Of a DNA stretch of 64,000 nt, positions 17,609-42,820 are shown in pieces (the first letter of the stretch is position 1; every line of letters starts with the position of its first letter). The DNA comes from a virus (lineage: Duplodnaviria; Caudoviricetes), in IMG/VR virus record IMGVR_UViG_3300021964_009400; one strand, given 5' to 3'. The notes beneath the pieces are model-generated. The model had not been told where the DNA came from and did no database searches. It saw only the letters and a program-made list of their open reading frames with translations. The translations under genes were made by a program, and so were the position numbers.

Positions 17609-18840
17609 TGGAAATTAGAACACGAGAACAATATATTAGTTACATAAGAAGAACATCAACTATCCCTACTGGACAAGATGGTTCTACTCCCATTAAAGTA
17701 ATTGAAGAAATGGTAAATAAATTACCAATAGATTGGTCAAATCCTAATTTAAAAATCCTAGACCCAGGGTTTGGATTTGGTGGTTATTTATTCTTTGTAT
17801 ATTTAAAATTAATTCAATATCATTCAGAAGAACACATATTAAATAATATGTTATATGGTATAGAAATTGAAGATTTTAGATTTGAACTTGTTAATCATAA
17901 ATTAAAAATAAAAAATCTAATTAAAGGAGATTTTTTAGATAATAAAATATTTAAAAATATGAATTTTGATGTAATACTTGGAAACCCACCATATCAAGAA
18001 ACCAGTAAGACGGGTGGTGTTCAACCAAAAGCTCATAATTTATGGAGCAAATTTATTGTTGAATCTTTAAATAATAATTTATCAACAGGTGGTGTTGTTT
18101 CGTTTGTAACACCGACTTCATGGGGAAGTCCTAGCAATGATGTATTTAAATTATTTAAAAAAAACAACTTAGTTTTAATCAATACTGAAATCTCTAATCA
18201 CTTTGATGTTGGTTCTACCTTTTCATATTGGATTGTTAAAAATGAAGCATATATCGGTAATACTAATATAAATGGTGTTAATTTTGATTTAAACAACTTT
18301 GACTATATTCAATCTGATATTAATAGCATATCTACTAAAATACATAAGATATTTAATGAATCACCATTTCCAAAATTTAATTGGGATGGTGATACTACTA
18401 CAAATCACTCATCTAAAAAAGAAAATCAATGGTCTGATAAATATTCTACAACTCATCCATATAAAGTATATCACACGAATGCACAATCATACTATTCAAA
18501 GATAAAATCAAAATCTCATGATGATTTTAAAGTATATCTAACTATTAGTGGGTATTACAATCCTTTATTTGATAATGGTACTATTAGTACAAGTGAAGTA
18601 GTTCCATATATAATTGTCAAATCAAAAAAAGAAGGGGAAAATTTATTAAATATTTTAAATTCTAAATTATACAAATATATTGTTAGTTCTGCCAAATGGA
18701 GTGGTTTTATAAATAAAGATATATTAAGAATTTTACCAAATATTGGAACTAATAAAGAATGGAGTGATGGTGAAATTTATAATAAGTTTGGAATAAAAAG
18801 TATTGAAGATATTAACTACATTGAAAACTATGTTGGATAA
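17608..18840 (+). CDS. Gamma-class amino-methyltransferase (Eco57I-like, probably m6A)
   Basis: ILDPGFGFGGY (motif I) precedes ILGNPPY (motif IV); TRD-like C-terminus. Confidence 0.85.
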   Translation: MEIRTREQYISYIRRTSTIPTGQDGSTPIKVIEEMVNKLPIDWSNPNLKILDPGFGFGGYLFFVYLKLIQYHSEEHILNNMLYGIEIEDFRFELVNHKLKIKNLIKGDFLDNKIFKNMNFDVILGNPPYQETSKTGGVQPKAHNLWSKFIVESLNNNLSTGGVVSFVTPTSWGSPSNDVFKLFKKNNLVLINTEISNHFDVGSTFSYWIVKNEAYIGNTNINGVNFDLNNFDYIQSDINSISTKIHKIFNESPFPKFNWDGDTTTNHSSKKENQWSDKYSTTHPYKVYHTNAQSYYSKIKSKSHDDFKVYLTISGYYNPLFDNGTISTSEVVPYIIVKSKKEGENLLNILNSKLYKYIVSSAKWSGFINKDILRILPNIGTNKEWSDGEIYNKFGIKSIEDINYIENYVG

Positions 18841-19436: not shown

Positions 19437-20258
19437 ATGGCATTAGACATTAACGCAATCAGAAGTAGGCTGAACAAACTACAAAACACACAAAGAAAAT
19501 CAGACTCTTTGTGGAAACCTACTCCAGGTAAACATCAAGTAAGAATCGTTCCTTACAAATTCGACAAAGATAATCCATTTATCGAATTGTATTTTCACTA
19601 CAACATTAACAACAAAACTTATCTTTCACCACAATCTTTTGGTAGACCAGACCCTATTGTAGAGTTTGCAGATAAACTAAAAAGAATGGGTGATAAAGAT
19701 GATTGGAAAGCTGCAAAAGCTATGGAACCAAAGTTAAGAACTTTCGTACCTGTTGTTGTAAGAGGTGAAGAAGGTGAAGGAGTAAGATTTTGGGGATTTG
19801 GTAAAACAGTATATCAAGAAATTCTTGGATATATTGCAGATCCTGATTATGGTGATATTACCGACCCAACAAGTGGTAGAGATTTAACAATCGAGTATAA
19901 ATCAGCAGAAGAAGCTGGTACTACTTATCCAACTACTACTATTAGAGTTAAACCAAATGAAACACCAGTAAGTGAAGATGCAACAAGAGCAACTGCATTT
20001 ATTGAATCACAAACCGAAATTACAGATTTATATTCTGAATTATCTTATGATGAATTAAAATCAGTATTAGAAGGTTGGTTGAACCCAACTGCAGAAAGTG
20101 GAGGTGACTCAGTTTCTCAAGAAACTCTTTCAACTGCACCTAAAAAAGAAACAACTGTATCTCATGATATGGGAGGTTCTAAAGAAGTAACTGAAAAATC
20201 AGATTCAAAGAAAACTGATGATGTTGCTGCTGCATTTGATGATTTGTTTAACAACTAA
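19437..20258 (+). CDS. Single-stranded DNA-binding protein (T4 gp32-like)
   Basis: WKP..GKHQVRIVP, GVRFWGFGKTVY, DITDP..GRDL, acidic tail DDVAAAFDDLFNN; precedes uvsX. Confidence 0.85.
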   Translation: MALDINAIRSRLNKLQNTQRKSDSLWKPTPGKHQVRIVPYKFDKDNPFIELYFHYNINNKTYLSPQSFGRPDPIVEFADKLKRMGDKDDWKAAKAMEPKLRTFVPVVVRGEEGEGVRFWGFGKTVYQEILGYIADPDYGDITDPTSGRDLTIEYKSAEEAGTTYPTTTIRVKPNETPVSEDATRATAFIESQTEITDLYSELSYDELKSVLEGWLNPTAESGGDSVSQETLSTAPKKETTVSHDMGGSKEVTEKSDSKKTDDVAAAFDDLFNN

Positions 20259-20269
20259 TTTAAAATTAC

Positions 20270-21394
20270 ATGGCGAAAAAGAAAGCAAAAGAACTAGACC
20301 TAGCAGATATTCTAGCAGGGGAGTTGAATAAATATTCGAAAGACCAAAAGGTTGCATACTTCCTTGATTCAGATGAAGCCCCTACGAATGTAGAAGGGTG
20401 GATATCGACTGGATGTGCTATGTTAGATGTTGCCGTTTCAAATCGTCCCTATGGTGGACTACCAGTTGGTAGAATCACAGAAATTACAGGTTTAGAACAA
20501 AGTGGAAAATCATTACTATCGGCTCACTTGTTAGCGGAAACGCAGAAACAAGGTGGAGTTGCAGTATTGATTGATACTGAAACTGCAGTAAGTAGAGAAT
20601 TTTTAGAAGCAATCGGTGTTGACGTTTCTAAACTTCTTTATGTATCAGCAGATTCGGTTGAACAAATCTTTGATTTTACAGAAACTATCATTGAAAAGGT
20701 TAGAGAAACTTCGAAAGATAAAATTGTAACTATCGTAGTAGATTCAGTTGCAGCTGCATCAACAAAAACAGAATTAGCTGCAGATTACAATAAAGATGGA
20801 TATGCTACTGATAAAGCAATTATTATTTCGAAGGCAATGAGAAAGATTACCAATATGATTGGTAGACAAAAAATCTCATTAGTATTCACTAATCAACTTA
20901 GACAAAAGATGAATGCTATGCCATTCGGAGACCCATGGACTACAAGTGGTGGAAAAGCACTAGCTTTTCACGCATCTGTAAGATTGAGGTTGAAAGGTAT
21001 GGGACAAATCAAACAAAAGGTAAATGGAAATGATAGGACAGTTGGAATGAAAGTTCGTTGTCAAGTTGTAAAAAACCGTATGGGACCACCATTAAGAGCT
21101 GCTGATTTCGAAATCTATTTCGATAGAGGAATCGATAATTATGGCTCTTGGTTGAAGGTAATGAAAGAAAATAAATTAGTAAAACAAGCGGGTGCTTGGT
21201 ACACTTATGTTGATACAGATACAGGTGAGGAATTAAAATTCCAATCTAAAGATTTCATTAAGTTAATGGAAGATAGAGAGGATGTAAAAGAACAAATTTA
21301 CAAAAAAATATGTGAAGAATCTATTTTACAATATAAATCCGATACACTTGATATTGATTCAATGGAAATTGATACCGAAGGTAGCACCGAATAA
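20270..21394 (+). CDS. uvsX: RecA/UvsX recombinase
   Basis: GLPVGRITEITGLEQSGKS, IVVDSVAA, FTNQLR, TTSGGKAL.FHASVRL, KNRMGPP. Confidence 0.95.
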   Translation: MAKKKAKELDLADILAGELNKYSKDQKVAYFLDSDEAPTNVEGWISTGCAMLDVAVSNRPYGGLPVGRITEITGLEQSGKSLLSAHLLAETQKQGGVAVLIDTETAVSREFLEAIGVDVSKLLYVSADSVEQIFDFTETIIEKVRETSKDKIVTIVVDSVAAASTKTELAADYNKDGYATDKAIIISKAMRKITNMIGRQKISLVFTNQLRQKMNAMPFGDPWTTSGGKALAFHASVRLRLKGMGQIKQKVNGNDRTVGMKVRCQVVKNRMGPPLRAADFEIYFDRGIDNYGSWLKVMKENKLVKQAGAWYTYVDTDTGEELKFQSKDFIKLMEDREDVKEQIYKKICEESILQYKSDTLDIDSMEIDTEGSTE

Positions 21395-21405
21395 AAAAAT
21401 TAATT

Positions 21406-21633
21406 ATGGATAAAAAGTTATATACAATGTTAAAAAGTAGTGCCGAGGCTGATAAAGCCAAAGCTCTACTTTCTTTAGAACTTCTTGGGAATAAAGCAGT
21501 TGGTATTGGTGACCATTCTACTGAAGATTTCTACAAAAACGCAGAGGAAGCTCTCGTTATGTTAGTAGATGCTGATGATAGATTGAATGCATTAGAAGAT
21601 TACTTTGAAGAAGGTTTAAAAGAAGTTTTATAA
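21406..21633 (+). CDS. Hypothetical protein
   Basis: 75 aa; GIGDHS motif; operon spacing. Confidence 0.7.
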   Translation: MDKKLYTMLKSSAEADKAKALLSLELLGNKAVGIGDHSTEDFYKNAEEALVMLVDADDRLNALEDYFEEGLKEVL

Positions 21634-22688
21634 TGAAAGAACTCTACAAAAACATTCTAGAGTCGGTTGAAAAGAACCGAGACCAAAATATCGATAGACA
21701 CAAGAATTCTCGTGTATTAATTATCGATGGTTTAAACACTTTTATCAGATGTTGGACATCTATTCCAACTTTAAATGATAATGGAGACCATGTTGGAGGT
21801 GTTACAGGTACTTTAAAATCTATTGGATACGCAATAAGACAAGTTCAACCGACTCGTGTTGTTGTAGCGTTTGATGGCCAAGGTGGTTCAAGGAATCGTA
21901 AAAAACTTTTTGAAGGTTACAAAGCTAATCGAGGAAAAAGTAAATTGAGAATGAATCGTGCATATAATGAGTTAATGAACGATGAGGAAGAACGAGAATC
22001 TATGAAAAGACAATATGTTTGGTTAAACGAATTGTTGCATGGATTACCAATTACCACTATGATATATGATGGTGTTGAAGCCGATGATATCATGGCATAT
22101 ATATCAGAACAACTTTTAAAAGAAGATGAACAAGCAGTTTTAATGTCTACTGATAAAGATTTCTTACAATTAGTAGATGAGAAAACTATTATATGGTCTC
22201 CTACTAAAAAGAAGATTTACAATCAGAAAGTAGTACAAGAAGAATATGGTTTACATCCTAATAATATGCTTATTTATAGAATTTTAGATGGAGATAAATC
22301 TGATAACATACCAGGCATATATGGGTGTGGTATTAAGACCCTTTTAAAAAGGTTTCCAGAGTTGACTGATGAACAAACTATTACAGTAGATGAGTTATTT
22401 CAATTAACTGAAAAAAAACTCGAAGAAACGAAAGGTAAAATAAAATTATATAAAGATATTTTAGCTGCCAAAAAACAAATTATTTTAAATGAAAAATTAA
22501 TGCAACTAAAAAATGTTGATATTTCAGGTTCAATAAAAATGAATGTTTTAGATAGATTTAATGAAGATATAACTCCACTTAATAAAATGAATTTTATGAA
22601 AATTTTATTAAAATATAAAGTAGTAAACAACTTTGGAGATATAAATGATTGGTTAAAAAGAACATTTGGAAACTTTATTACAAAATAA
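21633..22688 (+). CDS. 5'-3' exonuclease / T4-type RNase H (FEN1 family)
   Basis: IIDGLN, AFDG, EADD, STDKDFLQL, GDKSDNIPG. Confidence 0.92.
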   Translation: MKELYKNILESVEKNRDQNIDRHKNSRVLIIDGLNTFIRCWTSIPTLNDNGDHVGGVTGTLKSIGYAIRQVQPTRVVVAFDGQGGSRNRKKLFEGYKANRGKSKLRMNRAYNELMNDEEERESMKRQYVWLNELLHGLPITTMIYDGVEADDIMAYISEQLLKEDEQAVLMSTDKDFLQLVDEKTIIWSPTKKKIYNQKVVQEEYGLHPNNMLIYRILDGDKSDNIPGIYGCGIKTLLKRFPELTDEQTITVDELFQLTEKKLEETKGKIKLYKDILAAKKQIILNEKLMQLKNVDISGSIKMNVLDRFNEDITPLNKMNFMKILLKYKVVNNFGDINDWLKRTFGNFITK

Positions 22689-22720
22689 TTTGGTAGTTTC
22701 AAATATTTTTCGTATATTTG
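22689..22720 (+). promoter_or_regulatory. Bacteroidota-type promoter
   Basis: TTTG-N20-TATATTTG. Confidence 0.8.
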
Positions 22721-22742
22721 TACTTATAAATACATTTAATCA

Positions 22743-24104
22743 ATGCAGCAAGATTTAGATACTTTATCAAAATATGGTCAATCTTTTCAATCAAAGGTTG
22801 TATCTTCATTACTTACTGATGGTAAATTTTTAGATACAATATCTGAAGTTACAACTTCAAAGTTTTTTGAAAATGATGCTAATAAATGGATAGTATCTGA
22901 AATACTTGCATATCATGACGATTATAAAAAACCACCTACTCTTGATGTATTCAAAGGACAGTTATCAAAGTTAGATAATGAAATACTTAAAAAAACTATT
23001 GTTGAACAACTCAGACATGTGTTTACTCAAATAGGTAATGTAGATTTAGATTATATAAAAAATGAATTTACAGATTTCTGTATTAATCAAAATCTAAAAG
23101 GTGTTATTCTACAATCGGTTGATTTATTAAAAGCTGGAAATTACGATAGAATTAAAGATTTAGTTGATAAAGCAACTAAAATTGGACAAGATACTGATTT
23201 AGGATTGGATTATAAAGAAGATTTTGATGACCGTATGGAAGATTTAAAGCGTTCAACTGTTCCAACTAATTGGAAACCTATAAATGATTTAATGGATGGT
23301 GGATTAGGACCTGGAGAACTTGGTGTAATTGTTGCTCCTTCTGGTGTAGGTAAAACTTGGATACTTACTGCAATAGGTGCAGATGCCGTTAGAAGAGGTT
23401 TAAGTGTAGTTCATTATTCTATGGAATTATCGGAACATTATGTTGGTGCTAGATATGATACTGTATTTACTCAAATACCTTCCACCGAATTAAAGGAAAG
23501 AAAAGATGAGGTTAAATCAAAAATTCAATCATTACAAGGAAACTTACTTATTAAGTATTTTCCACCAAAGGGAGTTTCTGTTAGAAAGTTAAATCAACAT
23601 ATTGAAAAAATGATAGTTTCTGATAATAAACCTGATTTAATTATAGTAGATTATGCAGATTTACTATTATCAGATTCAAATAAAACTGATTCAACTTATG
23701 CAGAACAAGGTGGTGTTTATATTGATTTAAGAGGTATGAGTGGTGCACTTGAAATACCAGTATGGACTGCATCTCAAACCAATCGTTCGGCTATTGATTC
23801 AGAAGTTATTGAGGCTGATAAAATTGCTGATTCTTATGCAAAGGTAATGAACGCTGATTTCATTATGAGTTGGAGTAGAAAATCAAAAGATAAACTTAAT
23901 GATACTGCTCGGGCTCATATAATGAAGAACAGATTTGGACCAGATGGAATTACTTTCCCATGTAAAATGAATACCAACACAGGTTACATTGAAGTTTATG
24001 AAGGTAATTCACCAGATGGAGTAATTGCACAAAAACAAGCTGCAAGTGGTCAGTTAGAAACAAAAAAACTTTTACATAAAAAGTATGTAGAAAATATGGG
24101 TTAG
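22743..24104 (+). CDS. Replicative DnaB-family helicase (T4 gp41-like)
   Basis: APSGVGKT, SMELSE, IIVDYADL, TASQTNR, KNRFGPDG. Confidence 0.92.
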   Translation: MQQDLDTLSKYGQSFQSKVVSSLLTDGKFLDTISEVTTSKFFENDANKWIVSEILAYHDDYKKPPTLDVFKGQLSKLDNEILKKTIVEQLRHVFTQIGNVDLDYIKNEFTDFCINQNLKGVILQSVDLLKAGNYDRIKDLVDKATKIGQDTDLGLDYKEDFDDRMEDLKRSTVPTNWKPINDLMDGGLGPGELGVIVAPSGVGKTWILTAIGADAVRRGLSVVHYSMELSEHYVGARYDTVFTQIPSTELKERKDEVKSKIQSLQGNLLIKYFPPKGVSVRKLNQHIEKMIVSDNKPDLIIVDYADLLLSDSNKTDSTYAEQGGVYIDLRGMSGALEIPVWTASQTNRSAIDSEVIEADKIADSYAKVMNADFIMSWSRKSKDKLNDTARAHIMKNRFGPDGITFPCKMNTNTGYIEVYEGNSPDGVIAQKQAASGQLETKKLLHKKYVENMG

Positions 24105-24264
24105 TCTATCAAAAAAATTATTACACCTAAACCAATAAAAAAATTAAATGTATAAAAATAAAAATTAATTGAAAATCTATTTCGTTTTTCAATATATACT
24201 ATAATTATAAACACGACCAGATAGTTGGTCACTTCAAAAACAAAAATTAAAAAAGGAATATTTT

Positions 24265-24435
24265 ATGGCAAATTCACAAGAACTATTTGAACAAATTAAA
24301 GATTTATTCGTTCAATTTGAGGATGAACACAATGGTTCATCTAAAGCAGCTAAATCGAGAGCTAGAAAACACATCGGTGAAATCAAAAAGTTAGTAACAG
24401 ATTACAGAAAAGCGTCAGTAGAAGAAAACAAATAA
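24265..24435 (+). CDS. Histone H1-like (Hc1-type) small DNA-binding protein (56 aa, not in ORF track)
   Basis: MANSQELFEQIKDLFVQFEDEHNGSSKAAKSRARKHIGEIKKLVTDYRKASVEENK; the KAA..RARK...EI.K....RK.S.EE pattern matches the Bacteroidota histone-H1-like family. Confidence 0.7.
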   Translation: MANSQELFEQIKDLFVQFEDEHNGSSKAAKSRARKHIGEIKKLVTDYRKASVEENK

Positions 24436-24444
24436 GGTTATAAC

Positions 24445-25440
24445 ATGAGTAAATTATTCCAAGAAAGAATCCCTTTCAAACCATTCGAATATCCAATCTA
24501 CTATACAGAAGGTTGGTTGAAACAGGCACAAGCATTTTGGCTCCATACTGAGATACCCATGCAAATGGATGTTAAAGATTGGAACGAAACACTTACACCT
24601 GCAGAAAAGAATTTGGTTGGAAATATCTTACTTGGATTTGCTCAAACCGAATGTGCAGTTTCTGATTATTGGACTAACATGGTAACCAAGTGGTTTCCTA
24701 AACATGAAATCAGACAGATGGCTATGATGTTTGGTTCACAAGAAACTATTCACGCTACAGCTTATTCATATCTAAATGAGACATTAGGATTAGAAGATTT
24801 CTCGGCATTTTTGCACGAACCTGCAACTGCTGAGAAATTTGAACTCCTAACTTCAACAACGGCTGATTGGACACATGAAGATTTACAAACCAACGAAAAG
24901 GCAAGACAAGAAGTTGGTAGAAGTTTAGCAATCTTTTCAGCATTCGCAGAAGGAGTTAGTTTATATTCTTCTTTTGCGGTACTTTACTCATTTCAAATGA
25001 GAAACAAACTTAAAGGTATTGGACAACAAATGAAGTGGAGTGTAAGAGATGAATCTCTACATTCTCGTATGGGTTGTCAATTGTTCAGACATATGTGTGA
25101 TGAATATCCAGAATTGTTAGAACAATGTAAAAATTCAATAGAAGAAGCATCTAAACTGATTATTGATTTAGAATGTAACTTTATTGATAAAATGTTCGAA
25201 ATGGGTGATTTAGAAAATCTTGAAAAAGATGATTTAAAAGAATTCATTAAAGATAGAACAAATCAAAAATTACAAGAATTAGGATACGAACCAATTCATG
25301 AATTCAATAAAAAGAAATCAGAAAAGTTAGAATGGTTCTATCATCTTACAGGTGGTCATACTCACACCGATTTCTTTGCTATTAGACCTACCGATTATTC
25401 TAAGGCAAATGAAGGTGAAGATTGGGATGACTTATTTTAA
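24445..25440 (+). CDS. nrdB: Ribonucleotide reductase class Ia beta subunit
   Basis: FAQTE, ETIHATAY, FAEGVSLYSSF, RDESLH di-iron motifs. Confidence 0.95.
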   Translation: MSKLFQERIPFKPFEYPIYYTEGWLKQAQAFWLHTEIPMQMDVKDWNETLTPAEKNLVGNILLGFAQTECAVSDYWTNMVTKWFPKHEIRQMAMMFGSQETIHATAYSYLNETLGLEDFSAFLHEPATAEKFELLTSTTADWTHEDLQTNEKARQEVGRSLAIFSAFAEGVSLYSSFAVLYSFQMRNKLKGIGQQMKWSVRDESLHSRMGCQLFRHMCDEYPELLEQCKNSIEEASKLIIDLECNFIDKMFEMGDLENLEKDDLKEFIKDRTNQKLQELGYEPIHEFNKKKSEKLEWFYHLTGGHTHTDFFAIRPTDYSKANEGEDWDDLF

Positions 25441-31875: not shown

Positions 31876-34392
31876 ATGTATCAAAACATTTATTACCAGA
31901 GAGAAAAAAATCTAATCCACTTGTGGGATGACCAAAGAGGATATTCATCTTTTCCTTATACACGATATGCATACGAACCTGCTGAAAGAGGAGAATATAC
32001 TTCTATCTATGGAGATAAACTTACAAAGATTTACAAGTTTAAAAAAGATGATACAAACCTTTTTGAATCAGATGTACCAGAAACTACAAGAGCTTTAGTA
32101 GATTTATATTCGGATTCCGATGAACCATCTACTGGTCATGTAATTCTCACATACGATATTGAGTGTGAAATGGAAAGTGGATTACCAGACCCACAAGAAG
32201 CAAAAAATGAAATTACTTCTATTGCACTTCATGATTCAGCTACCAATCAATATTGGGTATTGGTTATGGATAAAGATAATATTCTTGAAGAAAAAACTAC
32301 TGATAAATGTATTGTAATTCCTTTCAGAGATGAAAGAGATATGTTGATGAAATATTTGGAATTATATGAGTATATCAACCCTTCAATAGTGACGGGTTGG
32401 AATATTGATTATTTCGATACACCAATGTTATATAACAGAATTAAAAGATTATTAGGACAAAGACAAGCAAATAGATTATCACCAATCGGACAGTGTTTCT
32501 GGTCACCTTATAGAAAAAGATATTTTATGGCAGGTGTATCTTATTTGGATTATATAACATTGTATAAGAAATTTAACTATGGTGAACTTCCAAATTATCG
32601 ATTAGATACAATAGGACAAATTGAATTAGGTAGAGGTAAGATTGAGTATCAAGGAAATCTTGACCAATTATTTAAAGAAGATATTGAAAAGTTTATTGAG
32701 TACAACTTAGTAGATGTTGAGTTGGTAGTTGAATTTGATAAAAAACTTCAGTTCATTGATTTATGTAGAGGTATTACTCATGCGGGTCATGTACCTTATG
32801 AAGATTTTGTTTATTCATCAAAATATCTCGAAGGTGCATTACTATCATTCCTTAGAAGAAAAAATTTAGTTGCACCAAATAAACCTGCTGATAGACAAGA
32901 GAGAATGCAGGCGATTAGAGATAACAACGAAGAAAAGTTTATTGGGGCTTATGTAAAAGCACCAATCGTTGGAAAATATGATTGGGTATATGATTTAGAT
33001 TTAACTTCACTATATCCTTCAATCATTATGACTTTGAACATTTCACCAGAATCAAAGATTGGTAAGATTCAAGATTGGGATGCTAACAAGTTCGTTAAAG
33101 GTGAAGTTGATACTTATTATATCGGAGAGGATTCTATTTCAAAAGAAAACTTAAAAAAATACTTAGAACAATCAAAGTTTTCAGTTGCTTCTAATGGTGT
33201 TTTGTATAGAACTGATAAAGTTGGTTGTATACCTGATATTCTTAATCTTTGGTTTGACCAAAGAGTTGAGTTTAAAAATGAAATGAAAAAATATGGTAAA
33301 GCAGGTAATAAAGAAAAATATGCCTTTTACGCGAAAAGACAGTTGGTTCAAAAAATTCTACTCAACTCTCTTTATGGTGTTCTTGGTCTCCCTGCCTTTC
33401 GGTTCTATGATGTGGATAATGCGGAGGCAGTTACTACGACAGGTCAAACAGTTATTAAATCAACTGCGGATATGGGTAATATCAAATATAACAAAGAACT
33501 TAATACTCCTAATGCTGATTCTAACATTTATATTGATACTGATTCTGTATTCTTTTCCGCAGTTCCTTTGATGGACAAAAGAATCCCAAATTGGAAAGAA
33601 CAAGACCAAGATACAATTGCTGGTTATGTAAATGAGATTGCAGAAGAGATGCAAGATTACCTTAATGATTTCTACAATATACTTTCAAAAAAAGTTCTAA
33701 ATGTTGATAAAGATAAACATAGATTAGAGATTAAGAAAGAGTATGTTGCTAAAGCAGGATTGTGGATTGCAAAGAAAAGATATGCCCAATGGATTATTTC
33801 AGATAATGGTGTACCAGTAGATAAACTCGATGTAAAAGGTTTGGATGTTAAACGAAGTAGTTTCCCTAAGGCATTCCAAGAAATAATGGCAGATGTTCTT
33901 ATATCAATTCTAAGAGGACAATCGGAAGAAGAAATATCAGATAAAGTTTTGGCATTTAAAAAATCTATGATAAATCAAGATGTAGCTGTCATTGCAAAGA
34001 ATTCAGCAGTAAAAAATCTTAGAAAGTATATGCCAAAAGGTAAAAGAGAACGATTCTCTATAATGAAAGGAACACCTGCTCATGTTAAAGCTGCAATCCT
34101 TTACAATGATTGTTTACAACATTTTAATGCACCATTCAAATATGAACCAATGAAAAATGGTGATAAAGTAAAATGGGTTTACCTTAAAGATAATCCTCTT
34201 GGAATCGATGGATTAGCATTTACAGGTTATTCAGACCCACCAGAGATAGAAAAATTTATTCAAACTTATATTGACCACAATAAAATATTTGAAAGAGAAC
34301 TCAAACACAAACTACAAGATTTCTTCGATGCAATCGGTTGGGGAGATGTTGTGAGTGAACAAAGAACGGCTGAAAAGTTTTTTAGTTTTTAG
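31876..34392 (+). CDS. Family B DNA polymerase (T4 gp43-like)
   Basis: Exo TYDIECE and GWNIDYFD; DLDLTSLYPSII; KILLNSLYG; YIDTDS. Confidence 0.95.
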   Translation: MYQNIYYQREKNLIHLWDDQRGYSSFPYTRYAYEPAERGEYTSIYGDKLTKIYKFKKDDTNLFESDVPETTRALVDLYSDSDEPSTGHVILTYDIECEMESGLPDPQEAKNEITSIALHDSATNQYWVLVMDKDNILEEKTTDKCIVIPFRDERDMLMKYLELYEYINPSIVTGWNIDYFDTPMLYNRIKRLLGQRQANRLSPIGQCFWSPYRKRYFMAGVSYLDYITLYKKFNYGELPNYRLDTIGQIELGRGKIEYQGNLDQLFKEDIEKFIEYNLVDVELVVEFDKKLQFIDLCRGITHAGHVPYEDFVYSSKYLEGALLSFLRRKNLVAPNKPADRQERMQAIRDNNEEKFIGAYVKAPIVGKYDWVYDLDLTSLYPSIIMTLNISPESKIGKIQDWDANKFVKGEVDTYYIGEDSISKENLKKYLEQSKFSVASNGVLYRTDKVGCIPDILNLWFDQRVEFKNEMKKYGKAGNKEKYAFYAKRQLVQKILLNSLYGVLGLPAFRFYDVDNAEAVTTTGQTVIKSTADMGNIKYNKELNTPNADSNIYIDTDSVFFSAVPLMDKRIPNWKEQDQDTIAGYVNEIAEEMQDYLNDFYNILSKKVLNVDKDKHRLEIKKEYVAKAGLWIAKKRYAQWIISDNGVPVDKLDVKGLDVKRSSFPKAFQEIMADVLISILRGQSEEEISDKVLAFKKSMINQDVAVIAKNSAVKNLRKYMPKGKRERFSIMKGTPAHVKAAILYNDCLQHFNAPFKYEPMKNGDKVKWVYLKDNPLGIDGLAFTGYSDPPEIEKFIQTYIDHNKIFERELKHKLQDFFDAIGWGDVVSEQRTAEKFFSF

Positions 34393-34395
34393 AAT

Positions 34396-35742
34396 ATGAG
34401 ATTATTATTAGGAGATTGTTTAGATAAACTGAAAGAACTTGATGACAATAGTGTAGATAGTATTGTTACAGACCCACCTTATGGTTTATCCTTTATGGGT
34501 AAGAAATGGGATTACGATGTTCCTTCACAAGAAATCTTTGAGGAATGTTTAAGAGTATTAAAACCTGGTGGATATCTACTTTCATTCGCAGGTTCAAGAA
34601 CTTATCACAGAATGGCAGTTAGAGTAGAAGATGCAGGGTTTGAAATACGAGACCAGATAATGTGGATATATGGTAGTGGGTTTCCAAAATCACTTAATAT
34701 AGGAAAAGCAGTAGATAAAAAGAATGGTGTTAAAGGGGATGTTATTGGTACACGAAAAGTTACATCATCCGATATTGGTCAAAAGAGTGGTTGGAATGAA
34801 CTTAACACAGACAGAGGTGATTATGAATATAGAGAAATAATGAATGAATACGCGGGTTGGGGAACTGCTCTTAAACCAGCACACGAACCAATCGTTATGG
34901 CAAGAAAACCACTTTCAGAAAAAACGATAGTTGATAATGTATTAGAATGGGGAACAGGTGGAATAAACATAGATGAGAGTAGAATATTGACTACTGATAA
35001 TCTTGGTGGAGGTGCAACAAATGGTTCAGTATTAGATATTGAAGGATTTGATAGACCGTGGATGCATGATGAAGAAAAGATGAAAGAGTTTGGTGAGAAA
35101 ATGAAACAAAAAGTAGAACACGCTCAAACTCTTGGTAGATTTCCTGCAAACATAATCTTTGATGAAGAAGCTGGTAAAATCTTGGATGAACAGAGTGGTA
35201 TATCCAAATCCACAGGTGGTAGAAGTGGAAACAAAGAAGGAGTTGGTCAAAATGGAATATATGGTCAATACAACGGAGAAGTAAGAGATGAAAATCCTGG
35301 TCTTGGTGATATAGGTGGAGCATCTCGTTTCTTTTATTGTCCTAAAACATCAAAGATAGATAGGAATGAAGGATTAGAAGGTTTTGAGGAAAAGAAATCT
35401 CGTAAATGGAGAGATGATAAAGGAATGAAACTCACGGGTAGTGGTAATCCAAGAAACGAAATGAGTAAAAACTTTCACCCAACGGTCAAACCAACTGATT
35501 TAATGCTCTATCTCATTAGATTAGTGACACCGAAAGGTGGAACAACCCTTGACCCTTTTATGGGTAGTGGTTCAACAGGAAAAGCAGCAGTAAGGGGTGG
35601 GTTTGATTTCATAGGAATAGAAAGAGAAAAAGAATATATGGAGATTGCAGAAGCAAGAATTCAGTATGAAATAGATAATCCTTACAATGAAGAAAAAGGA
35701 GAAAGAATAAAAATAAATAAAAATGCAAATAAATTTTGGTAA
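34396..35742 (+). CDS. Beta-class DNA amino-methyltransferase (N6/N4)
   Basis: VTDPPY near N-terminus; HPTVKP and LDPFMGSGSTG near C-terminus. Confidence 0.92.
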   Translation: MRLLLGDCLDKLKELDDNSVDSIVTDPPYGLSFMGKKWDYDVPSQEIFEECLRVLKPGGYLLSFAGSRTYHRMAVRVEDAGFEIRDQIMWIYGSGFPKSLNIGKAVDKKNGVKGDVIGTRKVTSSDIGQKSGWNELNTDRGDYEYREIMNEYAGWGTALKPAHEPIVMARKPLSEKTIVDNVLEWGTGGINIDESRILTTDNLGGGATNGSVLDIEGFDRPWMHDEEKMKEFGEKMKQKVEHAQTLGRFPANIIFDEEAGKILDEQSGISKSTGGRSGNKEGVGQNGIYGQYNGEVRDENPGLGDIGGASRFFYCPKTSKIDRNEGLEGFEEKKSRKWRDDKGMKLTGSGNPRNEMSKNFHPTVKPTDLMLYLIRLVTPKGGTTLDPFMGSGSTGKAAVRGGFDFIGIEREKEYMEIAEARIQYEIDNPYNEEKGERIKINKNANKFW

Positions 35743-36558: not shown

Positions 36559-38208
36559 ATGAAAAAGTATTTTTACGAAGTAAGTAAATTTTCCGAATAT
36601 AAATCCAATAAAACTTATCATCAGTTACTTCAAATGACTGATGATGAGTTTACTGATTGGGCAAAGTTGATTCGTAAAGATGTCATAGATGCTTGGGATA
36701 ATCATGGACAACCTCCTGTTAAAGGAAAAGATGAAAATCAGATTATTAATCACTTTGGTAAATTAAAAAATCATGATTGTGATTTTTTTACTAAAGATGA
36801 TAGTGATGATGAATCGTTGGGTATTCTTAAAAACTTTAATAAAAGTCAAAGTGTGGTAAATCAATTTTTCCCCACAATGTTAAAAACAAGAATATCAGAT
36901 GGTGCATCTGCAGAAGGTGGATTATCTATTTATGATTATTTTGCTGAAGATAGTTTAGCAGAAGCTTTTGTAAAGGTAATGAAAAGAGCCGTTAAGAGAG
37001 ATTCTATGTATGCTTGGTGTCGTTCATTAACAACTATTAAAGATGATAATCCTTTTTGGAATGGTCAAACACCATATAAGTTTATCAAAGATGTTCATGA
37101 TGGTAAAATATTTAAAGGAAAATGGGAAAAATATGATATTGTACTTTCAAAAACAACAGAACCTTCAATTAGAAAATATGGTCCTCTAAATGAAAATAAA
37201 CAAACATATGGAGTAATATTATTTTTACATGCTAAACAAGTAAAAAGATTAGTAAAAGAAGGATATTTAAATAAAGGTCATATTTCAAATCTTGGAGATA
37301 TTGAAGATTCAAGAACACAAAAAAATGGTAAAGTAGTAAAATACCTTTATAATATTAGATGGTACAATACAACTGAAGGTATTTTTCCTAAAATTCTGCA
37401 AGCTTTTAGATTAGGATTAGGACAACCAGCAGTAAACTTTCCTGCATTAACTGCTAAGTGGATTTACGAAAAATATACTGACCATATAGAAGAAGATGAA
37501 TCATTACACATTTATGATTCATCAGCAGGGTGGGGTGGTAGAATTATTGGTGCTATGAGTAGTAGAAAGAAAACTCATTATATTGGTACAGACCCTAATC
37601 CAGATAACTTTATTGATGATTTGGGTATTTCTAGATATGAATATATGGCAGATTATTATAATAAAAACTGTGTAGATACTCATTCAGATAAATTAACAAG
37701 TTTCTTTGAAGTAGAAAATCAAGGAAACACTTATGAATTGTTTCAAGATGGTTCAGAGCTAATTCACAAAAATCCAAACTTTCAAAAGTATAAAGGTAAA
37801 TTAGATTTATTCTTTACATCACCACCATACTTTAATAGAGAACAATATTCTCAAGATGAAAATCAATCGTTTAAAGCATATTCTCAATATGATGATTGGA
37901 GAGAAAACTTTTTAAAGCCTACTCTTACAACAATTTATGATTATATGAAAAGTGATAGATATATTCTTTGGAATATTGCATCAATTAAAATTAATAAGAA
38001 TACTTACTTTGATTTAGAAGGAGATTCTATTAAAATTCTAAAAGACCTTGGTGCAGAATATAAAGGTAAACTAAAAATGACAATGGCAGCTATGATTGGT
38101 GCTAATGTAAATAAAAGAGAATCAATTGAAAGTGGTATTAAAAACATGGTTCAAGTTGGAAGTACATGGTACAAATATGAACCTATATTCGTATTTTATA
38201 AAAAATAA
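36559..38208 (+). CDS. Large SPPY-type methyltransferase, paralogue 1
   Basis: AVNFPALTAKWIYE, IYDSSAGWGGR, FTSPPYFNREQY, YEPIFVF. Confidence 0.8.
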   Translation: MKKYFYEVSKFSEYKSNKTYHQLLQMTDDEFTDWAKLIRKDVIDAWDNHGQPPVKGKDENQIINHFGKLKNHDCDFFTKDDSDDESLGILKNFNKSQSVVNQFFPTMLKTRISDGASAEGGLSIYDYFAEDSLAEAFVKVMKRAVKRDSMYAWCRSLTTIKDDNPFWNGQTPYKFIKDVHDGKIFKGKWEKYDIVLSKTTEPSIRKYGPLNENKQTYGVILFLHAKQVKRLVKEGYLNKGHISNLGDIEDSRTQKNGKVVKYLYNIRWYNTTEGIFPKILQAFRLGLGQPAVNFPALTAKWIYEKYTDHIEEDESLHIYDSSAGWGGRIIGAMSSRKKTHYIGTDPNPDNFIDDLGISRYEYMADYYNKNCVDTHSDKLTSFFEVENQGNTYELFQDGSELIHKNPNFQKYKGKLDLFFTSPPYFNREQYSQDENQSFKAYSQYDDWRENFLKPTLTTIYDYMKSDRYILWNIASIKINKNTYFDLEGDSIKILKDLGAEYKGKLKMTMAAMIGANVNKRESIESGIKNMVQVGSTWYKYEPIFVFYKK

Positions 38209-39836
38209 TGAATTATTACTATCAAAGAAATAAGTTTATAAATTTTAAATCAAATATTCTTTTTCACGAATTACTTAATACTAATGATTTTGAATTTGAA
38301 GATTGGGCAAAAACTTTGCGTAAAGAAGTTACTGAACAATGGGATAGATTTGGAAATCCACCTGTTATAGGGAAAAATCATAGTGATATTATTTCATCAT
38401 TTAGTAAGTTAAAATCCAATGATTGTGATTTTCTTATTAAAGATAGTACAGATTCAGAATCTTTAGGTATTATCAAAAACTTCAATAAAGATGCAGCAGT
38501 TGTAAATCAGTTTTTTCCTACAATGTTAAAAACTAAAATATCAAGTGGTAAATCAGCTGAAGGAGGATTATCAATATATGATTATTTTGGTGACCCAACA
38601 ATGGAAGAACAATTTGTTAAGATTATGAAACGAGCAGTTAGACGAGATTCGATGTATGTTTGGTCTCGTTCACTTGTTAATAAGAAAACTGAAAATCCTT
38701 TTTGGAATGGACAGAGTGGATATGATTTTATCAAAGATGTTAAAGATGGAAAAGTATTTACAGGTAAATGGGAAAATTATGATATCTATTTAACTAAATC
38801 AAAGGATAGTACATTTGATAATTATGGAACATTCAATGATGATTATGTTGGATTTACAAACATATATCTTTCAGCAACTGAAGTAAATCAACTATTAGAT
38901 AAAGGTTACTTAAATTCAAGACAAGTTTCTAATATAGATAAAGTTGAAGATTCCTCAACTTCCAAAAGTGGTACCGTAACAAAGTATTCTTATATGGTTC
39001 GTTGGTATGATAAAACAGAAGGATTGTTTCCTAATATGTTGAGAGTAATACGATTGAGTTGTGGTCAAGCAGCAGTAAACTTCCCATCATTGACTGCAAA
39101 ATTTTTATATGAAAAATATACATCACATATTAAACAAGAAGAACCTTTGGTAGTTTATGATTCATCAGCAGGTTGGGGTGGTAGAATCATCGGAGCGATG
39201 AGTTCTCGTAAGAAAATTCATTATGTTGGTACAGACCCTAATCCTGATAACTATTTAAAAGAATTAAATAAATCTCGTTATGAATATGTAGCAGATTTTT
39301 ATAACAAAAATTGTATAGATAATCATTCAAATAAACTTACATCATTCTTTAATGTAGAAAAACAAGGTAATACTTATGAGTTATTCCAAGATGGTTCAGA
39401 GTTAATCTCAAATAATCCAAACTTTCAAAAGTATAAAGGTAAACTAGATATTGCATTTACTTCACCACCATACTTTAACAGAGAGCAATATTCACAAGAT
39501 GAGAAACAATCTTTTAAAGCTTATAGTGAGTATAAGGATTGGAGAGATAACTTCTTAAAACCTACTCTAACAACGATTTACGAGTATCTAAAGAATGATA
39601 GATATATCTTATGGAACATTGCCGATATAAAGATTGGAAAATCAATATATTATCCACTTGAACAAGATTCAATTGATATCTTAAATGGGTTAGGATGTGA
39701 ATACAAAGGTAAACTTAAAATGTTGATGACAAGGATGGTTGGGTTGGACCCATCTAAAAGTGGTATAAAGAACTCTGTCAAATATGGTGGGAAAGTATAT
39801 AAATTTGAACCAATATTTGTTTTTTATAAACCTTAA
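38208..39836 (+). CDS. Large SPPY-type methyltransferase, paralogue 2
   Basis: AVNFPSLTAKFLYE, VYDSSAGWGGR, FTSPPYFNREQY, FEPIFVF; colinear with paralogue 1. Confidence 0.8.
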   Translation: MNYYYQRNKFINFKSNILFHELLNTNDFEFEDWAKTLRKEVTEQWDRFGNPPVIGKNHSDIISSFSKLKSNDCDFLIKDSTDSESLGIIKNFNKDAAVVNQFFPTMLKTKISSGKSAEGGLSIYDYFGDPTMEEQFVKIMKRAVRRDSMYVWSRSLVNKKTENPFWNGQSGYDFIKDVKDGKVFTGKWENYDIYLTKSKDSTFDNYGTFNDDYVGFTNIYLSATEVNQLLDKGYLNSRQVSNIDKVEDSSTSKSGTVTKYSYMVRWYDKTEGLFPNMLRVIRLSCGQAAVNFPSLTAKFLYEKYTSHIKQEEPLVVYDSSAGWGGRIIGAMSSRKKIHYVGTDPNPDNYLKELNKSRYEYVADFYNKNCIDNHSNKLTSFFNVEKQGNTYELFQDGSELISNNPNFQKYKGKLDIAFTSPPYFNREQYSQDEKQSFKAYSEYKDWRDNFLKPTLTTIYEYLKNDRYILWNIADIKIGKSIYYPLEQDSIDILNGLGCEYKGKLKMLMTRMVGLDPSKSGIKNSVKYGGKVYKFEPIFVFYKP

Positions 39837-39845
39837 ATACTTATA
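39837..39845 (+). promoter_or_regulatory. Putative phage promoter motif heading the TBDT unit
   Basis: ATACTTATA. Confidence 0.45.
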
Positions 39846-39850
39846 CAAAG

Positions 39851-39973
39851 ATGAGTGAAACTTATTATATAAATTTTACCAGTTACTATCAAAGTTCGTA
39901 CTTTACTGAAACAACAGTTACCGCTGATAGTATAACTTTTTACTCCCAAGATTTTAATGAAATTACAATATAA
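39851..39973 (+). CDS. Putative 40-aa leader ORF (not in ORF track)
   Basis: MSETYYINFTSYYQSSYFTETTVTADSITFYSQDFNEITI; 8 Thr, 6 Tyr, 6 Ser, 4 Phe, no basic residues. Confidence 0.4.
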   Translation: MSETYYINFTSYYQSSYFTETTVTADSITFYSQDFNEITI

Positions 39974-39990
39974 AAAATATTCAAAAGAAT

Positions 39991-40042
39991 TGAGATATGA
40001 GAATATCTCATGTGTTACTATAATCAGTTATAGTATTTTTTT
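39991..40042 (+). promoter_or_regulatory. Tandem hairpins; the second is terminator/attenuator-like
   Basis: TGAGATAT-GAGA-ATATCTCA (39991-40010) and TACTATAA-TCAG-TTATAGTA (40016-40035) followed by T7. Confidence 0.5.
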
Positions 40043-40062
40043 AATTTAAATTAATATAATTT

Positions 40063-42771
40063 ATGAGAAATTTAATGTTAAGTCTGTTATTAGTTCTTGG
40101 AACAATGACAGCAACTTTTGCACAAATTAGTGGAAAAGTTTATGATGTAGAAACTAATGCTCCACTACCAGGTGCAACAATATTACATGAGGGAACATCT
40201 CATGGAACTGTGACTGGTTTTGATGGAACATTTATTTTCGATGTATCTCCAGGAACAACCCTTGTTGTTTCTTATTTAGGGTACGAAACTGCAGTAATTG
40301 AATCAAGTTCAGAAACAATCATTGGATTAGTTCCTGATTTAAATGTACTTGGTGAAGTTGTTGTAAGCTCTGGTGTAATTGATGTTGCAAAGGTGAGAGA
40401 AACACCAGTTGCAGTTTCAACTATTTCACCAGCAGAAATCGCACTCAAAGTAGGTAACCAAGAGTTTCCAGAGATTATGAATAGAACACCAGGTGTCTAT
40501 GCTACCAAACAAGGTGGTGGATATGGTGATTCGAGAATCTCTTTAAGAGGATTTGACCAAAGAAACACATCTTTCCTTATCAATGGGCAACCAGTTAACG
40601 ATATGGAAAATGGATGGGTTTATTGGTCTAACTGGCAAGGTTTAACAGATGTTGCAAGTGGTATCCAATTACAAAGAGGTTTAGGTGCTTCAAGATTAGC
40701 AGTACCATCAGTAGGTGGAACTGTATCAATCTTTACAAAAGCCGCTGAGGCAAGAGCTGGTAGTTCAGTTGCTCAATCATTTGGTAATGATGGGTATTTT
40801 AAAACTACTGTATCTCACTCAACTGGTTTAAATGATAATGGATGGGCTTCATCTTTCTTACTTTCAAGATGGGAAGGTGATGGATATATCTATAATACAA
40901 GTGGTGAGGGTTACACTTACTTCTTTGCATTAGGATATGCACCTGAAGATTCAGACCACTCAGTTAACTTTTCTTTCTTAGGTGCTGGTCAATGGCACCA
41001 CCAAAGAGATGTTTGGGTTTCTATTAGAGATTACCAAAACTTTGGTACTGAAGGAATTGATAGAAGATGGAACACTAATGGTGGTGTTTACCAAGGAGAA
41101 GAATATTCTTTAAGAAGAAACTTCTACAATAAACCATTAGCAACTCTTAACTGGGATTGGGATATTTCTGATAACCTTAAACTTGCAACATCATTATATG
41201 GTTCAGCAGGTAGAGGTGGAGGAACAGGTCCAAGAGGTAGAAACTACTACAACTCGGAAACTGATATCTTACCTTTCAGAAAAGACCTTACAGAACACTA
41301 CCTAGAAAATGGTAGAGGTTCAAGAACACCAGACGGATTTATTGATTTTGATGCAATTGTTGCTTATAACCAAGCTAGTACAGATGGTTATAGTGGTGAT
41401 TTACCATTCGGAGGTCAGTTAATTGCATCTAATGGATTTAAAAACGATGGTGTAAATAGAGCTGGTCTTATTAGAAGAGCATCTATGAACTCTCATGACT
41501 GGGTTGGAGCAATCTCTAATTTAGAATATGAAAGTGGAAATTGGAAAACTTCAATTGGTATCGATTTAAGAAATTATAAAGGATATCATTATAGAGTATT
41601 AAATGATTTATTAGGATTTGATGGTTATTACTCAACTGGTAATAAGAACTCAGCTGGACAAATCATCAATACTTTAGTTGAAGCATCTCCATTCAAAGAT
41701 ACAGGAATTAAAGGACCAAAAATCGATTACTATAATATTGGTAAAGTAGGTTGGCAAGGTGTAAATGGTTTAGTTGAATATAACAACTCCACTATTTCTG
41801 CAGTATTACAAGCAGGTTTATCTAATAAATCATTCCAGAGAATCGATTACTTCGACCAACCAGGTAACCCTGAATCAGATACAGAAAATGTAGGTGGTGG
41901 ATATGTAAAAGGTGGTGCAAACTATAATATTGATGATAGACAAAATGTATTCTTCAATGCTGGTTTCATCTCAAGACAACCAAACTTTGATGCAGTATTC
42001 CCTAACTATGCAAACAATGTTAATCCTGATTTACAAAATGAAGAAATTAAATCAATTGAAATCGGATATGGATTCATTGGTAATAACTTCAAAGCAAATG
42101 TAAACGCATACTCAACAGTATGGGGTAATAGATTTGTTTCAAGAAGTTTATCTAACCAACAAGGTGTAGATGGGTTTGCACAATTTAAAGATATCGATGT
42201 TGTACACAATGGTATCGAAGTTGAAGCAACTTATGACCCAACTTCTAACTTAAGATTAAAAGGTATGTTATCAATCGGTGATTGGAGATATACTAAAGAT
42301 TTTGATGCAGAGTTATTTGATGATAACCAACAATCAATCGGTACAGGTACACTTTACCTTAAAGATGCAAAAGTTGGTGATGCAGCTCAATTCGTTTCTT
42401 ACTTAGAAGCTGATTATAAATTAGGTAGTAAGTTAAATGTAGATTTAGGATATAGATTTGTAGATAATCTTTTCGCAGATTACTCAATTACTGATTCAGA
42501 ATTTACAAAACCTAATAATGCAGGTGCATTGAAGTTACCATCTTATGGATTAGTTGATTTAGGTTCAACACTTAGATTTAACTTATTCGGAAATGATACT
42601 TCATTCAGAGTAAATATCAATAACTTATTTGATACTTACTACATTGCTGAATCTAATTCTAACATCCATGCTTCTGCAGGTTCAGAAACTTGGAATGGAA
42701 TTGATACGAGAAACTCAGTATGGTTCGGATTCGGACGTACATTTAATGCTTCTCTTAAATACAGATTCTAA
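40063..42771 (+). CDS. Full-length TonB-dependent outer-membrane transporter (Bacteroidota type)
   Basis: Sec signal peptide; CarboxypepD_reg-like domain (LPGATI..GT..GTVTGFDG..SYLGY); TonB box LGEVVVS; plug (RETPVAVSTI, SLRGF, GASRL); beta-barrel ending SLKYRF. Confidence 0.92.
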   Translation: MRNLMLSLLLVLGTMTATFAQISGKVYDVETNAPLPGATILHEGTSHGTVTGFDGTFIFDVSPGTTLVVSYLGYETAVIESSSETIIGLVPDLNVLGEVVVSSGVIDVAKVRETPVAVSTISPAEIALKVGNQEFPEIMNRTPGVYATKQGGGYGDSRISLRGFDQRNTSFLINGQPVNDMENGWVYWSNWQGLTDVASGIQLQRGLGASRLAVPSVGGTVSIFTKAAEARAGSSVAQSFGNDGYFKTTVSHSTGLNDNGWASSFLLSRWEGDGYIYNTSGEGYTYFFALGYAPEDSDHSVNFSFLGAGQWHHQRDVWVSIRDYQNFGTEGIDRRWNTNGGVYQGEEYSLRRNFYNKPLATLNWDWDISDNLKLATSLYGSAGRGGGTGPRGRNYYNSETDILPFRKDLTEHYLENGRGSRTPDGFIDFDAIVAYNQASTDGYSGDLPFGGQLIASNGFKNDGVNRAGLIRRASMNSHDWVGAISNLEYESGNWKTSIGIDLRNYKGYHYRVLNDLLGFDGYYSTGNKNSAGQIINTLVEASPFKDTGIKGPKIDYYNIGKVGWQGVNGLVEYNNSTISAVLQAGLSNKSFQRIDYFDQPGNPESDTENVGGGYVKGGANYNIDDRQNVFFNAGFISRQPNFDAVFPNYANNVNPDLQNEEIKSIEIGYGFIGNNFKANVNAYSTVWGNRFVSRSLSNQQGVDGFAQFKDIDVVHNGIEVEATYDPTSNLRLKGMLSIGDWRYTKDFDAELFDDNQQSIGTGTLYLKDAKVGDAAQFVSYLEADYKLGSKLNVDLGYRFVDNLFADYSITDSEFTKPNNAGALKLPSYGLVDLGSTLRFNLFGNDTSFRVNINNLFDTYYIAESNSNIHASAGSETWNGIDTRNSVWFGFGRTFNASLKYRF

Positions 42772-42789
42772 AATAAACTAAAGAAATAA

Positions 42790-42820
42790 TGGGGGAGGAA
42801 ACTCCCCCACTATTCTTTTT
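42790..42820 (+). terminator. Intrinsic terminator after the TBDT
   Basis: TGGGGGAG-GAAA-CTCCCCCA followed by CTATTCTTTTT. Confidence 0.85.

Follow-up and report, generated by a model that had tools for sequence, protein, structure and literature searches.

A TonB-dependent transporter gene of apparent host derivation within the replication module of a T4-like phage lineage

Why a phage should keep a gene for an outer-membrane transporter among its DNA replication genes, and whether such a gene belongs to the phage at all, are the questions raised by a locus in the IMG/VR virus record IMGVR_UViG_3300021964_009400 (Caudoviricetes). The stretch of this record that was analysed (64,000 nt, hereafter the window; the source contig is 278.5 kb) carries a gene for a TonB-dependent transporter (TBDT) of 902 amino acids. 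In marine Bacteroidota, transporters of this type are the main nutrient gateway. All genes of the window lie on one strand, at about 29% G+C, and the module in which the TBDT gene is found specifies, on that same strand, a T4-type DNA polymerase (PolB), a sliding clamp, a clamp loader, gp32, a UvsX/RecA-like protein, RNase H, a DnaB-like helicase and a class I ribonucleotide reductase (RNR). The comparisons described below support long residence of a self-contained TBDT gene in the phage, and a role in uptake is the favoured explanation of its presence.

The product is an intact TBDT as predicted from its sequence and a structural model. A reading of the sequence alone (the sequence-only reading) had described a 902-aa TBDT with signal peptide, N-terminal extension, TonB box, plug, barrel and terminal phenylalanine, and Pfam searches, AlphaFold2 modelling and alignment recovered each of these parts (Table 1). 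The signal-peptide stretch appears in the model as a helix (residues 2–15) with a low predicted local distance difference test score (pLDDT), and the ...FAQ junction at its end is also present in TBDT homologs. CarbopepD_reg_2 (PF13715) matches residues 22–101 with 57.8 bits, above the cut-off; this N-terminal domain has seven strands in the model, resembles the corresponding domains in solved structures of SusC and RagA, and is missing from some phage and bacterial homologs (836–850 aa). The TonB box, EVVVSSGVID (residues 98–107), is situated in and just past a disordered linker of low pLDDT (residues 91–103), ahead of the plug. Matches to Plug (PF07715, residues 111–190, 49.9 bits versus a cut-off of 23.9) and TonB_dep_Rec_b-barrel (PF00593, residues 378–855, 39.7 bits versus a cut-off of 27) follow, and the terminal F902 is nearly invariant (at least 90% conserved in an alignment of 64 homologs). 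The AlphaFold2 model, for which a 64-sequence alignment was the input, has a pLDDT of 82.7 and a predicted template modelling score of 0.78, and comprises 22 barrel strands plus the plug. Foldseek matched it to PqqU (E = 4e-43), FhuA (3e-40), YncD, OprC and FecA, with E-values ranging to 1e-35 and sequence identities of 13–15%.

The junctions between the gene and its phage surroundings are reproducible. A second record of the locus (ENA, L161, 16.4 kb), which may share its sample with the window, is 99.95% identical and collinear over both of them, and numerous further assemblies show them at 85–90% protein identity. Across many samples, more than 50 IMG/VR contigs carry, within the same replication module, a TBDT 67–90% identical to that of the window, and the CheckV-complete genomes with module and TBDT measure 276, 253 and 191 kb. 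The closest bacterial gene shows 74% identity, and the bacterial loci have bacterial flanks, free of phage genes. Three findings had been named in advance as speaking against a phage gene, and none of them was made: the collinear second record and the syntenic contigs leave no sign of a chimera at the junctions, the best bacterial match is far from near identity with host flanks, and sequence identical to the gene is present in RNA libraries (see below).

The composition of the gene is that of its surroundings. The window contains a single GATC where 241 are expected, and the TBDT gene contains none; ACGT (2 versus 47 expected), GCGC (0 versus 3.9), CCGG (4 versus 11.7) and CTAG (38 versus 105) are also scarce across the window (nt 1–64000). 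The avoidance claimed for the TBDT gene was thus confirmed by counts and also by codon choice, as 54 of its 61 aspartate codons are GAT while all five that precede a codon starting with C are GAC (GAC-CAA twice, GAC-CAC, GAC-CTT and GAC-CCA). TBDT genes in phage context have 0–1 GATC versus 12–18 expected, with flanks alike, and their bacterial orthologs are near expectation. The more distant phage lineages L036, L050 and L077 show no GATC avoidance in either the gene or its flanks. The G+C content at third codon positions (GC3) of the window TBDT is 0.18, which is phage-typical. Among the 56 open reading frames (ORFs) of the window it ranks first for C-ending pyrimidine two-fold codons (0.37), followed by gp32, NrdB, UvsX and NrdA, in agreement with the codon style that had been likened to gp32 and the nrd genes; such a ranking is the pattern expected for strongly expressed genes. 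Synteny, the second record, freedom from GATC and a phage-like GC3 that are confined to phage copies, purifying selection (see below) and bacterial identities of no more than 74% all favour the earlier view of a long-resident phage gene over contamination.

Among homologous loci, GATC avoidance cleanly splits phage from bacterial contigs. The short contigs L081, L104 and L105 have been binned into bacterial metagenome-assembled genomes (MAGs). One of them, L105 (Crocinitomicaceae, 16 kb), has no GATC in its TBDT gene (9 expected) and three in the flanks (15 expected), which raises the possibility of a phage contig placed in the wrong bin; in a FastTree analysis L081 falls together with L039 and L041, both of them phage copies.

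Figures for the history of the gene come from a tree reconstruction (IQ-TREE, LG+C20, 76 rows). Phage copies sit within one bacterial group (Flavobacteriaceae, Cryomorphaceae, Cytophagales and others, 63–74% identical to the window copy), in which bacterial lineages are basal. The window copy belongs to an all-phage clade of 13–14 rows (support 99 and 95). The phage-only clade that had been predicted therefore holds for the window's own lineage and fails for the phage copies taken together. These are polyphyletic: at least five changes of the phage label are required on the tree, a single phage clade is rejected by the approximately unbiased (AU) test (p = 1e-4), and Flavobacteria bacterium MS024-3C, with its copy on the chromosome, nests in a phage clade with a support of 100. 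This interleaving indicates repeated transfer of the gene between phages and bacteria. A derivation from hosts is apparent in that the phage copies nest in bacterial diversity, are under purifying selection and have a composition ameliorated to that of the phage.

The chromosomal orthologs (Polaribacter MAG, Robiginitalea aestuariiviva, MS024-3C) have the same architecture at 63–74% identity, with the CarboxypepD_reg domain optional. Like the phage gene they look monocistronic, have their own terminator and lack SusD, and there is one copy per genome. They differ in their housekeeping locus, normal GATC frequency and promoter-like box of the TTTGCA type, whereas the phage copies are GATC-free, have another leader motif and stand among replication genes. 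In Flavobacteriaceae the locus is conserved (DUF3108 – M23 peptidase – pgi – TBDT), and in a sample of 201 genomes of this family the close orthologs (66–74%) occur mostly in genomes of 1.5–2.6 Mb, which fits pelagic hosts. A membrane protein of 145–157 aa that is conserved downstream in bacteria gave no family match and has no homolog in the phage loci. The pgi-linked locus holds either a 'type A' TBDT (65–74% identical to the phage gene) or a 'type B' (41–50%). Replacement of the host gene in situ, driven by phages, was considered as the origin of this pattern and rejected, given a continuum across the 201 genomes, intermediates of 54–60% and the presence of A and B in tandem in one genome. 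The two types suggest old tandem paralogs with differential loss. A 1.5 Mb Flavobacteriaceae genome (G118, contig C7, nt 19704–25223) carries two TBDT paralogs in tandem, which share 70% and 43% identity with the protein of the phage.

Within phages, the gene is under purifying selection. The ratio of non-synonymous to synonymous substitution rates (dN/dS) across 15 relatives is 0.15–0.25, versus 0.05–0.16 for PolB and the clamp loader, and in the closest pairs its synonymous divergence (dS) is below that of neighbouring genes. The identity of the TBDT co-varies with that of the flanking core genes (Spearman 0.4–0.7), which fits mostly vertical descent inside the lineage. Where the full 10-kb downstream flank was available in relatives with a PolB identity of at least 84%, the TBDT lies in that flank in 14 of 17, and one more has it farther off. 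No disrupted copy was seen among about 70 full-length phage TBDT ORFs. The upstream neighbour is variable, with at least six different arrangements: methyltransferase paralogs, the clamp loader, the clamp-loader small subunit, the RNR large subunit with a thioredoxin-like gene, and others. In eight loci (L029, L030, L033, L036, L045, L050, L059 and L077) the TBDT cassette comes right after nrdB-nrdA, in some with a thioredoxin-like gene between.

The gene is bounded by a terminator of its own and by a leader with a recurrent motif. At its 3' side, the GAAA-loop terminator that had been claimed was confirmed (Table 1), and nearly all phage loci have a G+C-rich hairpin with a T run at the equivalent place, although the stem sequence varies between them. 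At its 5' side, the T7 tail of the second leader hairpin stops 20 nt ahead of the TBDT start, and the motif GGTTAY...TTTAATTTAA recurs about 20–35 nt 5' of the ATG in many phage lineages with differing upstream genes. In its strict 16-mer form (up to three mismatches) it is present in 20 of 65 distinct phage upstream regions versus 3 of 80 bacterial ones. Of the promoter motif that had been proposed for the gene, the recurrence of this leader element across lineages stands, whereas matches of the sigma-70 type are at chance level: a scan of the sequence found 66 sites versus 71.7 expected from shuffled sequence and was uninformative. Measured against a moron, the unit therefore has a terminator of conserved position, a variable insertion site, a recurrent leader motif and promoter matches at the level of chance. 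The leader hairpins or the small ORF could serve as an operator or attenuator. The arms of hairpin 2 include the GTTAY motif that recurs 5' of the TBDT in other phages.

Table 1. Features of the TBDT locus (positions in the 64,000-nt window)
Feature	Position (nt)	Strand	Description	Basis
Leader	39837–40062	+	226 nt, from upstream methyltransferase-like gene to TBDT	read directly
Small ORF in leader	39851–39973	+	40 codons	read directly
Hairpin 1	39991–40010	+	perfect 8 bp stem, GAGA loop	read directly
Hairpin 2	40016–40035	+	perfect 8 bp stem, AT-rich, followed by T7 (40036–42)	read directly
Recurrent leader motif	40040–40049	+	TTTAATTTAA	recurs in phage loci
TBDT gene	40063–42771	+	902 codons plus stop	ORF call, Pfam, alignment, AlphaFold2 model, Foldseek
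Signal peptide (predicted)	40063–40122	+	residues 1–20, MRNLMLSLLLVLGTMTATFA before Q (codon from 40123)	read from sequence
N-terminal extension	40123–40332	+	residues 21–90, CarboxypepD_reg-like beta-sandwich	PF13715, model
TonB box region	40351–40380	+	residues 97–106, GEVVVSSGVI	model, alignment
Plug domain	40381–40758	+	residues 107–232	PF07715, model
Beta-barrel	40759–42768	+	residues 233–902, 22 strands, ends ...KYRF	PF00593, AlphaFold2 model
Intrinsic terminator	42790–42819	+	8-bp G+C-rich stem TGGGGGAG-GAAA-CTCCCCCA, T-rich tail	19 nt past stop codon

Contigs from metatranscriptomes (four libraries of four studies, labelled salt marsh and freshwater) match the TBDT gene. Within nt 40062–40414 they show no mismatch over 344 and 353 nt (two runs), and further along there are 2–5 mismatches. 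The high expression proposed earlier is thus supported in part: the codon bias, first in the window and in the style of gp32 and RNR, the low dS and the identical RNA-library contigs are in its favour, with the qualification that this support is less direct and the level cannot be read from it. Contig depth over the TBDT far exceeded that over adjacent genes and was not counted, since genes cannot be ranked by the depth of contigs and the runs had been chosen via this stretch.

Assignment to a TBDT class of known ligand was attempted with family models. The SusC/RagA model TIGR04056 gave 80.3 bits (cut-off 368.25) and aligned with residues 21–177 only, short of the full length that it calls for, and PDB profile matches to SusC and RagA were confined to residues 4–178. 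The BtuB model TIGR01779 scored 39.1 bits against an equivalog cut-off of 599.7. In general, the SusC/RagA, BtuB and siderophore-receptor models of NCBIfam match the N-terminal part only, far under their cut-offs, and the MxcH equivalog is likewise low. The JGI label of the gene, 'outer membrane cobalamin receptor', is a generic COG name. The TBDT has no SusD gene beside it, and five related phage records, of which three are complete, gave no match to PF07980, so that the absence of a SusD partner noted in the sequence-only reading was upheld. TonB (TonB_C), ExbB and ExbD were not found in three complete related phage genomes. Encoding none of these and no SusD, the phage must rely on host machinery for its TBDT to work.

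Conservation by region, expressed as mean pairwise identity, bears on what the protein does. Among phage copies it is highest in the plug (0.90), followed by the extracellular loops (0.78), the TonB box (0.75) and the barrel strands (0.75), and is lower in the periplasmic turns (0.50) and the N-terminal domain (0.44). The plug is nearly as similar between phage and bacterial copies (0.87), and the TonB box of the bacterial orthologs stands at 0.49 among themselves. The conserved loops, plug and TonB box lean towards the needs of a ligand-specific, TonB-energised importer and away from those of a receptor engaged in an arms race.

The explanation preferred here, held with slightly more than even confidence as a whole, is that the gene, acquired from a host, codes for an uptake transporter driven by the host's TonB, and that it forms a moron-like cassette among the replication genes of a marine jumbo phage of the T4-like kind (about 278 kb) that infects pelagic Flavobacteriales-type Bacteroidota. 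The TBDT would be transcribed early in infection as a separate unit, and its product exported by host Sec and the host beta-barrel assembly machinery (BAM) and inserted into the outer membrane. The host TonB-ExbB-ExbD complex would presumably energise it, as the phage encodes none. It could then sustain or raise import of the ligand taken up by the conserved single-copy ortholog of the hosts, and so feed a long infection in which a genome of about 278 kb is built. By analogy, it would be an auxiliary uptake gene comparable to cyanophage pstS.

Several points weigh against this explanation. Searches for the substrate by PDB sequence and fold returned only generic TBDT matches (13–15% identity), Rfam matched no family, and hence no riboswitch, in the leader or in the upstream regions of seven bacterial orthologs, and none of the bacterial gene neighbours is informative. 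The RNA-library contigs show the presence of the sequence only; strand, ends and level cannot be read from them, and carry-over of DNA is possible. Relatives at about 75% PolB identity often are without the TBDT, including a complete 214-kb genome, which makes it an accessory and not an essential gene in the wider family, although it is firmly retained within the subfamily of the window. Since outer-membrane proteins are long-lived, uptake may gain little from one more copy produced in a lytic cycle. The results obtained do not separate uptake from a receptor-related role.

That receptor-related role is the main rival, and an unlikely one in our estimate. It holds that the TBDT remodels the receptor landscape or excludes superinfection by altering adsorption of competing phages or of the phage's own progeny, possibly by crowding out or replacing host receptors at BAM, by titrating limited host TonB through its TonB box, or by serving on vesicles and debris as a decoy. 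TBDTs are among the classic receptors of phages, and FhuA, the receptor of T5, is among the fold matches; Lom, an outer-membrane barrel of lambda, is reported to block LamB, an idea that has been extended to outer-membrane proteins of huge phages (bioRxiv 10.64898/2026.10.24.761521). Conservation of the TonB box would be required for titration of TonB as well as for uptake. The extracellular loops, however, are conserved like the strands, with no sign of arms-race diversification, and a plug 87% identical to that of bacterial orthologs would be needless in a mere decoy or TonB sponge. An added barrel, moreover, does not remove the host receptors already in the membrane, and a decoy for the phage's own progeny would be costly.

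Two further alternatives to the uptake transporter are distinctly less credible. According to one, which is very improbable, the leader-gene-terminator unit is a passenger cassette of little benefit, spread by recombination and persisting mainly by moving; this would account for the six or more upstream neighbours, the polyphyly of the phage copies under the AU test and the absence of the gene from part of the wider family. Such a passenger would scarcely be expected to hold a dN/dS of about 0.2 over deep phage lineages, to remain undisrupted in some 70 full-length ORFs, to be fully ameliorated with an expression-type codon bias and to be kept in nearly all close relatives, and neither a transposase nor an integrase flanks the TBDT. 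According to the other, the locus is an artefact in which a bacterial gene was fused to phage DNA by mis-assembly or mis-binning. The 2-kb bin with most of the TBDT does have 35% G+C versus about 29% nearby, and public sets include short 'viral' or 'MAG' contigs of ambiguous nature, but the extra G+C arises at codon positions 1 and 2 (0.43), while GC3 and the lack of GATC are phage-like, and with the junctions reproduced in the second record and at the protein level in many assemblies, and bacterial identity not exceeding 74%, this origin can practically be dismissed. A bolder extension of the uptake explanation, doubtful at present, is that the cassette moves both ways and makes phages a reservoir and vector of alleles of a core host transporter (MS024-3C being an example), with the phage copy tuned to a limiting nutrient; this might be an iron complex, needed by the di-iron class I RNR and by the radical S-adenosylmethionine and 2OG-Fe(II) enzymes of the phage. 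The recurrent adjacency to the di-iron RNR is at most a weak hint of iron.

Phage-encoded TBDTs are already known, and the present one is a well-supported further case from a distinct family. The marine megaphage Mar_Mega_1 and LR745206 encode TBDTs, for which carbohydrate uptake was proposed (PMC9723777), others have been reported in viruses of Bacteroides and Alistipes from gut viromes (PMC8857322), and in huge phages, including a Lak phage (cluster HP2985), transcription of a TBDT has been reported and superinfection exclusion proposed (bioRxiv 10.64898/2026.10.24.761521). All share a phage-encoded plug and barrel of the Bacteroidota type, and have been read as uptake auxiliary metabolic genes (AMGs) or as receptor-related. 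The megaphage records match the present TBDT over the plug only (26–34%), which indicates a different family. The present family occurs in T4-like marine phages of about 190–280 kb, with more than 400 matches in IMG/VR, about 444 in all, and about 590 homologs in bacteria, and differs further in that its selection regime, amelioration and phage–bacterium interleaving are documented here. Short faecal contigs labelled 'Bacteriophage sp.' match the present TBDT at 34%.

Two other systems offer parallels. The lom and bor morons of lambda are likewise separate units with a terminator between conserved phage genes, and specify an outer-membrane beta-barrel acting on the host envelope; Lom, however, is an 8-strand barrel expressed in lysogens of a temperate phage, whereas here a 22-strand predicted transporter is found in a lytic-type T4-like phage. 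The cyanophage genes pstS, phoA and OMP-like DUF680 / IPR056410 are also host-derived uptake or envelope parts under purifying selection in T4-like marine phages, but involve other proteins and hosts, and for pstS the ligand and phosphate regulation are known.

That a phage lineage widespread in marine and estuarine metagenomes keeps a TBDT under selection suggests that the outer-membrane uptake of infected cells may be adjusted by the phage. If true, the concept of auxiliary genes would extend from cytoplasmic metabolism to active outer-membrane transport. With hundreds of phage copies, orthologs in cultivable genera and clear sequence markers of phage and host, the family offers a practical test system for the function of phage-encoded TBDTs, and the same markers would let TBDT signals in metaproteomes and metatranscriptomes be separated.

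No near-identical match to the window was present among GenBank phage records. By PolB (nt 31876–34392), Microcystis phage Mel-JY01 is nearest among cultured phages (52.6%); the remaining cultured T4-like phages all share 33% or less, so the lineage is essentially uncultured. Besides the replication module, the window encodes sugar-nucleotide and glycosyltransferase genes and several DNA methyltransferases, with at least four methyltransferase-like genes (nt 17608–18840, 34396–35742, 36559–38208 and 38208–39836). The last two, directly upstream of the TBDT, are tandem paralogs (nt 36559–39836; 549 and 542 aa) with about 75% nucleotide identity, an SPPY motif and no Pfam match, and a GT2 glycosyltransferase lies downstream; being without signal peptides, these neighbours do not look like outer-membrane partners. 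Most relatives apparently have a single copy of the SPPY paralog, and RNA-library contigs that link nt 36650/51 to 38319 represent this single-copy form. One complete genome of 252,603 bp (G207, IMGVR_UViG_3300020810_001156) carries, in addition to the present TBDT family, a second and different TBDT-like gene (nt 233192–233494), a 661-aa open frame with a Plug match of 79.8 bits.

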